Positions 12,017 through 12,089 of a DNA stretch of 64,000 nucleotides are shown one piece after another (position 1 is the stretch's first letter; each line of letters opens with the position of its first letter). The translations under genes were made by a program, and so were the position numbers. Below the pieces are notes generated by a model that searched no databases, was not told where the DNA came from, and worked only from the letters and a program-made list of their open reading frames with translations. The stretch lies in assembly GCF_024502345.1 (NCBI RefSeq), contig NZ_JALDNN010000001.1; one strand, written 5' to 3'. The DNA is from Escherichia coli (GTDB lineage: Bacteria > Pseudomonadota > Gammaproteobacteria > Enterobacterales > Enterobacteriaceae).

Positions 12017-12044
12017 GTATGACGATTTTAAGTATTCGTCATAC
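12017..12044 (-). promoter_or_regulatory. NikR operator in the nikA promoter (GTATGA-N16-TCATAC)
   Basis: Perfect dyad GTATGAcgattttaagtattcgTCATAC 38 bp upstream of the nikA start; a weaker FNR-like half-site (TTGATccagAACAG on the minus strand) lies just upstream at about 12050-12064. Confidence 0.8.
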
Positions 12045-12089
12045 TGATTACCTGTTCTGGATCAATAGATGGGCAGTCGGGTGGGCGGA

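Follow-up and report, generated by a model that had tools for sequence, protein, structure and literature searches.

The 110-bp spacer between acpT and nikA (11980-12089, minus strand) is very probably the native promoter-operator of the nickel-uptake operon nikABCDE-nikR, activated by FNR from a class II position and shut off through occlusion by the nickel-responsive repressor NikR. The 64,000-nucleotide stretch of DNA in which it lies (hereafter the window) was analysed as a whole, and the features described below are on its minus strand unless given otherwise. What we observed directly is the sequence itself, its identity to that of Escherichia coli K-12, the integrity of the genes it would control, and the conservation of its elements at fixed spacing in other species. 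The system is an already known one, and the only feature specific to this strain is a rare G at approximately +4.

The window is E. coli chromosome, and the locus is the acpT-nikABCDE-nikR region of that species: a 301-bp piece around the operator was found in 5425 of 5426 complete E. coli genomes, each time between acpT and nikA. The upstream neighbour, acpT (12090-12677), has the same orientation as nikA, and its stop codon bounds the control region. The operon begins with nikA (10405-11979), an intact gene with its ATG at 11979 that encodes the periplasmic nickel-binding protein of 524 aa, and continues through full-length nikB (9461-10405), nikC (8631-9464), nikD (7867-8631), and nikE (7064-7870) to nikR (6657-7058), also full length and encoding the nickel-responsive repressor of 133 aa. 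In a comparison with MG1655 (NC_000913.3), the six nik genes and acpT have their K-12 lengths and zero internal stops, so the claim of the first-pass annotation that the operon is intact was borne out. The NikB, NikC, and NikR proteins are 100% identical to those of K-12, and NikA differs at three amino acids. NikR, NikA, and AcpT all pass the equivalog cut-offs of their NCBIfam families, with NikA scoring 837 bits against TIGR02294 (cut-off 393) and NikR 235 bits against NF002815 (cut-off 83). NikR is also a full-length match to the crystallised E. coli protein (PDB 1q5v, 2hza, 2hzv, and 3od2).

We also observed that parts of the operon differ from K-12 to unequal extents, with 31 of 807 nucleotides differing in nikE, 7 of 945 in nikB, 15 of 402 in nikR (all synonymous), and 1 of 110 in the promoter. 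The changes in nikE include eight at the amino acid level, three of them clustered at residues 6-8. This pattern hints at a recombination mosaic or at differing constraints. Downstream of nikR (window 1-6656), the sequence runs straight into yhiJ, yhiI, rbbA, and yhhJ, together with a gene for a HicB-family antitoxin; K-12, in contrast, has rhsB downstream of nikR, which the window strain lacks at that place. Full-length matches of this segment above 98.6% identity were found in none of the complete genomes, and 99% was reached by one record only, at its best place. The nikA promoter piece is 100% identical to that of strain FDAARGOS_944, which instead carries a GntR/PTS/FGGY-kinase cluster after nikR.

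Read toward nikA, the spacer runs TCCGCCCACCCGACTGCCCATCTA-TTGATccagAACAG-gtaatca-GTATGAcgaatacTTAAAATcgTCATAC-tgatttccgccatctattttaatccattGGGGttacc-ATG. At its core is the palindromic NikR operator dyad GTATGA-N16-TCATAC (12017-12044, minus strand), which covers the putative nikA promoter from approximately -27 to +2. The dyad is the single exact match in the 64-kb window, where 0.01 would be expected from shuffled sequence, and every other match found when up to two mismatches were allowed carries two. Its nikA-proximal end, at 12017, lies 38 nt before the first base of the ATG (37 bases intervene), so the dyad reported in the first-pass annotation, 38 bp upstream of nikA, is exact, unique, and correctly placed. 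It lies within an extended inverted repeat (12009-12052) with two 17-nt arms, GGAAATCAGTATGACGA at 12009-12025 and TCGTCATACTGATTACC at 12036-12052, that are 94% complementary and separated by 10 nt.

The published operator in the nikABCDE promoter is the same GTATGA-N16-TCATAC, for which Ni-NikR has nanomolar affinity (PMC7055735), and the enterobacterial NikR consensus has been given as GTATGAT-N13/14-ATCATAC (PMC545781). Other NikR operators include the delta-proteobacterial GTGTTAC-N13/14-GTAACAC and the sites of Helicobacter pylori NikR, and what they have in common is two-fold symmetry, a length of about 28 bp, binding by a ribbon-helix-helix tetramer, and location in a nickel-uptake promoter (PMC545781). 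The window contains the marks of an E. coli-type NikR operator: the dyad, its position over the core elements of a nickel-uptake promoter, and an intact cognate nikR. Nickel-loaded NikR would be expected to bind the dyad and repress the operon, as is known for the identical operator of K-12.

Just upstream of the dyad, and separated from it by 7 bp, is the FNR site TTGATccagAACAG (TTGAT-CCAG-AACAG; 12065-12052, minus strand), whose centre at 12058.5 lies at -40.5 from the inferred start. The element matches the consensus TTGAT-N4-ATCAA at 8 of 10 positions; the promoter-distal half is perfect, and the proximal half, AACAG, matches at 3 of 5. The first-pass annotation had correctly seen a TTGAT-N4-AACAG element adjacent to the dyad and had called it an FNR-like half-site, a wording that does not hold, as the element is a complete 14-bp dyad with one degenerate half. 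The coordinates given for the NikR dyad were right, and the upstream end of the FNR element moves from 12064 to 12065, with both features assigned to the minus strand.

In K-12, nikABCDE is classed as a Category 1 operon, directly activated by FNR, with one site at -40.5 (PMC3688515, Myers 2013). An FNR peak at K-12 nikA was called by three ChIP-seq algorithms and by ChIP-chip, with a PatSer ln(p) of -9.55, and Myers et al. cite no earlier direct evidence for FNR binding there (PMC3688515). In the portion of the per-gene expression supplement that concerns this operon, the values, which are taken here as fnr-mutant to wild-type ratios, are 0.030 for nikA, 0.056 for nikE, and 0.35 for nikR (PMC3688515). 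On this ratio reading, expression of nikA-E falls approximately 30-fold in the fnr mutant. The nikA row of the accompanying sigma70 ChIP table, labelled "Anaerobic", gives 68.7 and 1896.9, which are taken here as occupancy with and without oxygen, respectively (PMC3688515). The nik operon has been summarized elsewhere as "Repressed by NikR, dependent upon activation by Fnr" (PMC9434800). For the window strain, FNR occupancy, FNR dependence, and NikR binding are carried over from this literature on K-12, and with an identical site sequence the window site is expected to be occupied by FNR and to confer FNR dependence in the same way. The published NikR operator and the K-12 FNR site both coincide with the elements seen here, so the earlier suggestion of a match to the known nickel-repressed, anaerobically activated nikA promoter was sound.

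The nikA promoter resembles other class II FNR promoters, including those of dmsA, narG, ydfZ, and yfiD, in which the site is near -41.5; it shares with them a dyad of the TTGAT-N4-ATCAA type, a poor -35, and anaerobic dependence on FNR (PMC3688515). It is unlike typical members of the class in that the proximal half of the FNR site is degenerate and a repressor operator abuts it, 7 bp away.

The exact start site, the -10 box used in this strain, and the mechanism of occlusion are those we infer from promoter geometry. The start was derived by subtracting 40.5, the value reported for K-12 (PMC3688515), from the FNR centre at 12058.5. This places it at 12018 (minus strand), at an A inside the right half-site, TCATAC, with a 39-nt leader. 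The likely -10 hexamer, TAAAAT (12030-12025, minus strand), lies within the operator spacer, matches TATAAT at 5 of 6 positions, and is 7 nt upstream of this start. The distance from the centre of the FNR site to the first base of TAAAAT is 28.5 bp, which fits class II geometry, and the sequence at -35, AGGTAA, matches the consensus poorly. A purine-rich GGGG at 11985-11988 (minus strand), 5 nt before the ATG, is the likely ribosome-binding site of nikA.

A scan of 11900-12200 for sigma70 promoter and terminator consensus called neither, and its silence on a promoter is explained by activator dependence and a poor -35, so that it is uninformative either way. If we assume an offset of about 1,977 bp between U00096.2 and U00096.3, an approximate value based on the lengths of the two records, the K-12 FNR peak at 3,611,605 (U00096.2) lies some 5 bp away from the centre of the site, and with the same offset the K-12 sigma70 peak at 3,611,651 (U00096.2) falls at the predicted start. 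Repression of nikA by nitrate through NarL has been reported, as cited in PMC2718512, which itself remarks that no NarL site is detectable; our search of the acpT-nikA spacer for NarL heptamers (TACYYMT) likewise returned none.

Together, these elements point to a simple mechanism. RNA polymerase would use the -10 TAAAAT and, with no usable -35, would require an FNR dimer at TTGATccagAACAG, a site whose centre lies approximately 40.5 bp before the start near 12018. Activation would occur only while FNR holds its oxygen-labile [4Fe-4S] cluster. A nickel-loaded NikR tetramer would bind the GTATGA and TCATAC half-sites (12044-12017), and since these bracket the -10 and +1, bound NikR would exclude RNA polymerase, so that the promoter would be occluded when nickel is sufficient.

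For a view of conservation beyond E. coli, we took 80 loci encoding NikA from genomes that each represent a species, and placed the sequences upstream of nikA in register by their best dyad. The set includes 67 distinct Enterobacterales sequences, from Escherichia, Citrobacter, Klebsiella, Raoultella, Enterobacter, Kosakonia, Kluyvera, Edwardsiella, Arsenophonus, and others. Across these 67, the GTATGA and TCATAC half-sites are near-invariant, and five of the six -10 positions, read as TAnAAT within the dyad spacer, are invariant in all 67. TTGAT is present in 66-67 of the 67 at a fixed centre-to-centre distance of 28 bp from the dyad, and the two bases that follow it (CC) are kept in 64 and 58 sequences, respectively. 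In the promoter-proximal half of the FNR site only a C (51/67) and an A (67/67) are retained, and these pair with the G and the second T of the TTGAT consensus. The columns flanking the FNR site carry less than 0.6 bit, and there is almost no information farther upstream or beyond about 6 nt on the downstream side of the dyad. On this comparative evidence, the FNR site appears to be a functional-looking part of a rigid FNR/-10/NikR module that is specific to Enterobacterales. The asymmetry of its conservation, with an invariant distal TTGATCC and only the C and A kept in the proximal half, may reflect a constraint set by contacts with RNA polymerase, one that has not been described for the nikA promoter.

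Six loci from outside the Enterobacterales (L067, L069, L070, L071, L074, and L076, from Rhizobiales, an unclassified proteobacterial MAG, and Halomonas) also have a dyad of the GTATGA-N16-TCATAC type, with zero or one mismatch. An FNR-like site at the enterobacterial spacing was absent from all six, and in several of them a TTGAC-like or TGGAC-like sequence lies closer to the dyad. This suggests that, in these bacteria, nikA may have a constitutive promoter that is repressed by NikR alone.

The one departure from K-12 in the control region is at 12015 (minus strand), where the window has G and K-12 has T, at approximately +4 and 2 nt downstream of the dyad. It is the sole difference in a 151-bp alignment with MG1655 (NC_000913.3), leaving 109 of the 110 spacer positions identical and the dyad, the -10 box, and the FNR site all the same as in K-12. 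The description of the region as perfectly conserved in the first-pass annotation thus holds, on alignment to K-12, for the dyad and the FNR element and fails for the region as a whole. Among 5426 complete E. coli genomes, the 76-bp control region occurs exactly in its K-12 form in 5004 and in the form of the window in 10. The same G is found at the equivalent position in Escherichia sp. MOD1-EC7003. Across the 67 sequences from different genera, the column has T in 42, C in 23, and G in 2; because it varies in this way, the G is probably neutral. As the G adds one complementary pair to the palindrome relative to K-12, it could, through a longer perfect arm (CAGTATGACG/CGTCATACTG) and an altered initial transcript, slightly change NikR affinity or promoter escape, and if this were true it would shift the nickel set-point in this lineage. 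The joint reading, in which the G alters control and, separately, the asymmetry of the FNR site reflects a constraint imposed by RNA polymerase, strikes us as improbable.

A different reading of the upstream element, which we think very unlikely, is that TTGAT(CC) is not an FNR site and instead serves as the -35 of a conventional sigma70 promoter, with the left NikR half-site, 16 bp downstream, as its -10. TTGATC does match TTGACA at 4 of 6 positions, and in most Enterobacterales the first six dyad positions read TATGAT, a 5 of 6 match to TATAAT at a 16-bp spacer. In E. coli, including the window, however, the corresponding hexamer is TATGAC, without the final T that is essential to a -10, and the promoter scan called nothing. 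A -35 role also leaves unexplained both the invariant TAnAAT and the conserved C and A of the right half of the FNR site. Finally, K-12 has an FNR ChIP peak here, an FNR dependence of approximately 30-fold on the ratio reading of the supplement, and an FNR site positioned at -40.5 relative to a known start (PMC3688515). We rejected TTGAT as a -35 box on the final base of TATGAC, the presence of TAnAAT, and the K-12 results on FNR binding and expression.

Matches to the FNR consensus are common enough that coincidence also has to be weighed. When two mismatches to TTGATN4ATCAA are allowed, the 64-kb window contains 38 matches, against an expectation of 29.8 +/- 5.3, a density not above chance, and the element could on that count be a fortuitous match, with anaerobic control of nik being indirect in this strain. 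The significance of the element therefore comes from its position and conservation and not from its consensus match alone. A chance match would be hard to reconcile with a TTGAT that is retained almost without exception in Enterobacterales at a constant distance from the dyad, amid neighbouring columns that are nearly uninformative, or with FNR occupancy of the identical sequence in K-12 (PMC3688515), and we regard it as highly improbable.

The faintest prospect of all is that the palindrome at 12009-12052 works mainly at the RNA level, as a hairpin that terminates or stabilises acpT mRNA, with its operator role secondary. acpT does end 38 nt upstream of the first base of the palindrome in the same orientation, and an RNA reading through it would form a fold of -23 kcal/mol (z = -6.4). 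Such a fold is expected of any palindromic operator, however; positions outside the half-sites vary without compensation, and the nikA mRNA would itself start within the right arm of the palindrome. We rejected the palindrome as an acpT terminator because the scan called no terminator-like site, the stem is followed by only three U residues, and conservation tracks the NikR half-sites and the -10 rather than stem pairing, with spacer positions 11-13 variable.

Two other Escherichia leaders in the collection carry insertions. In the nikA 5' leader of Escherichia sp. MOD1-EC7003 (L005), a dispersed repeat about 110 bp long (2369-2477 of that locus) separates the operator from the ribosome-binding site. 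By megablast, E. coli genomes contain a median of 5 copies of this repeat, and one of its ends carries GTATGACG, an 8-mer of the NikR half-site. We presume that it resembles an ERIC/IRU element. In Escherichia sp. E1V33 (L004), about 425 bp of GC-rich repeats (approximately 2033-2457), one of them an 81-bp unit repeated 3.1 times in tandem, sit just downstream of an intact FNR/NikR module, which is thereby parted from the nikA start codon. A short piece of the right side of the operator is duplicated beside nikA in this strain.

For the biology of this strain, the promoter-operator described here means an intact and normally wired nickel importer, one that nickel would repress via NikR and the absence of oxygen would induce via FNR. 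The importer supplies the [NiFe]-hydrogenases, and the significance of finding it in this state goes little beyond annotation. For the order at large, the footprint confirms that FNR site, -10 box, and NikR operator are held together as a single rigid module across the Enterobacterales.
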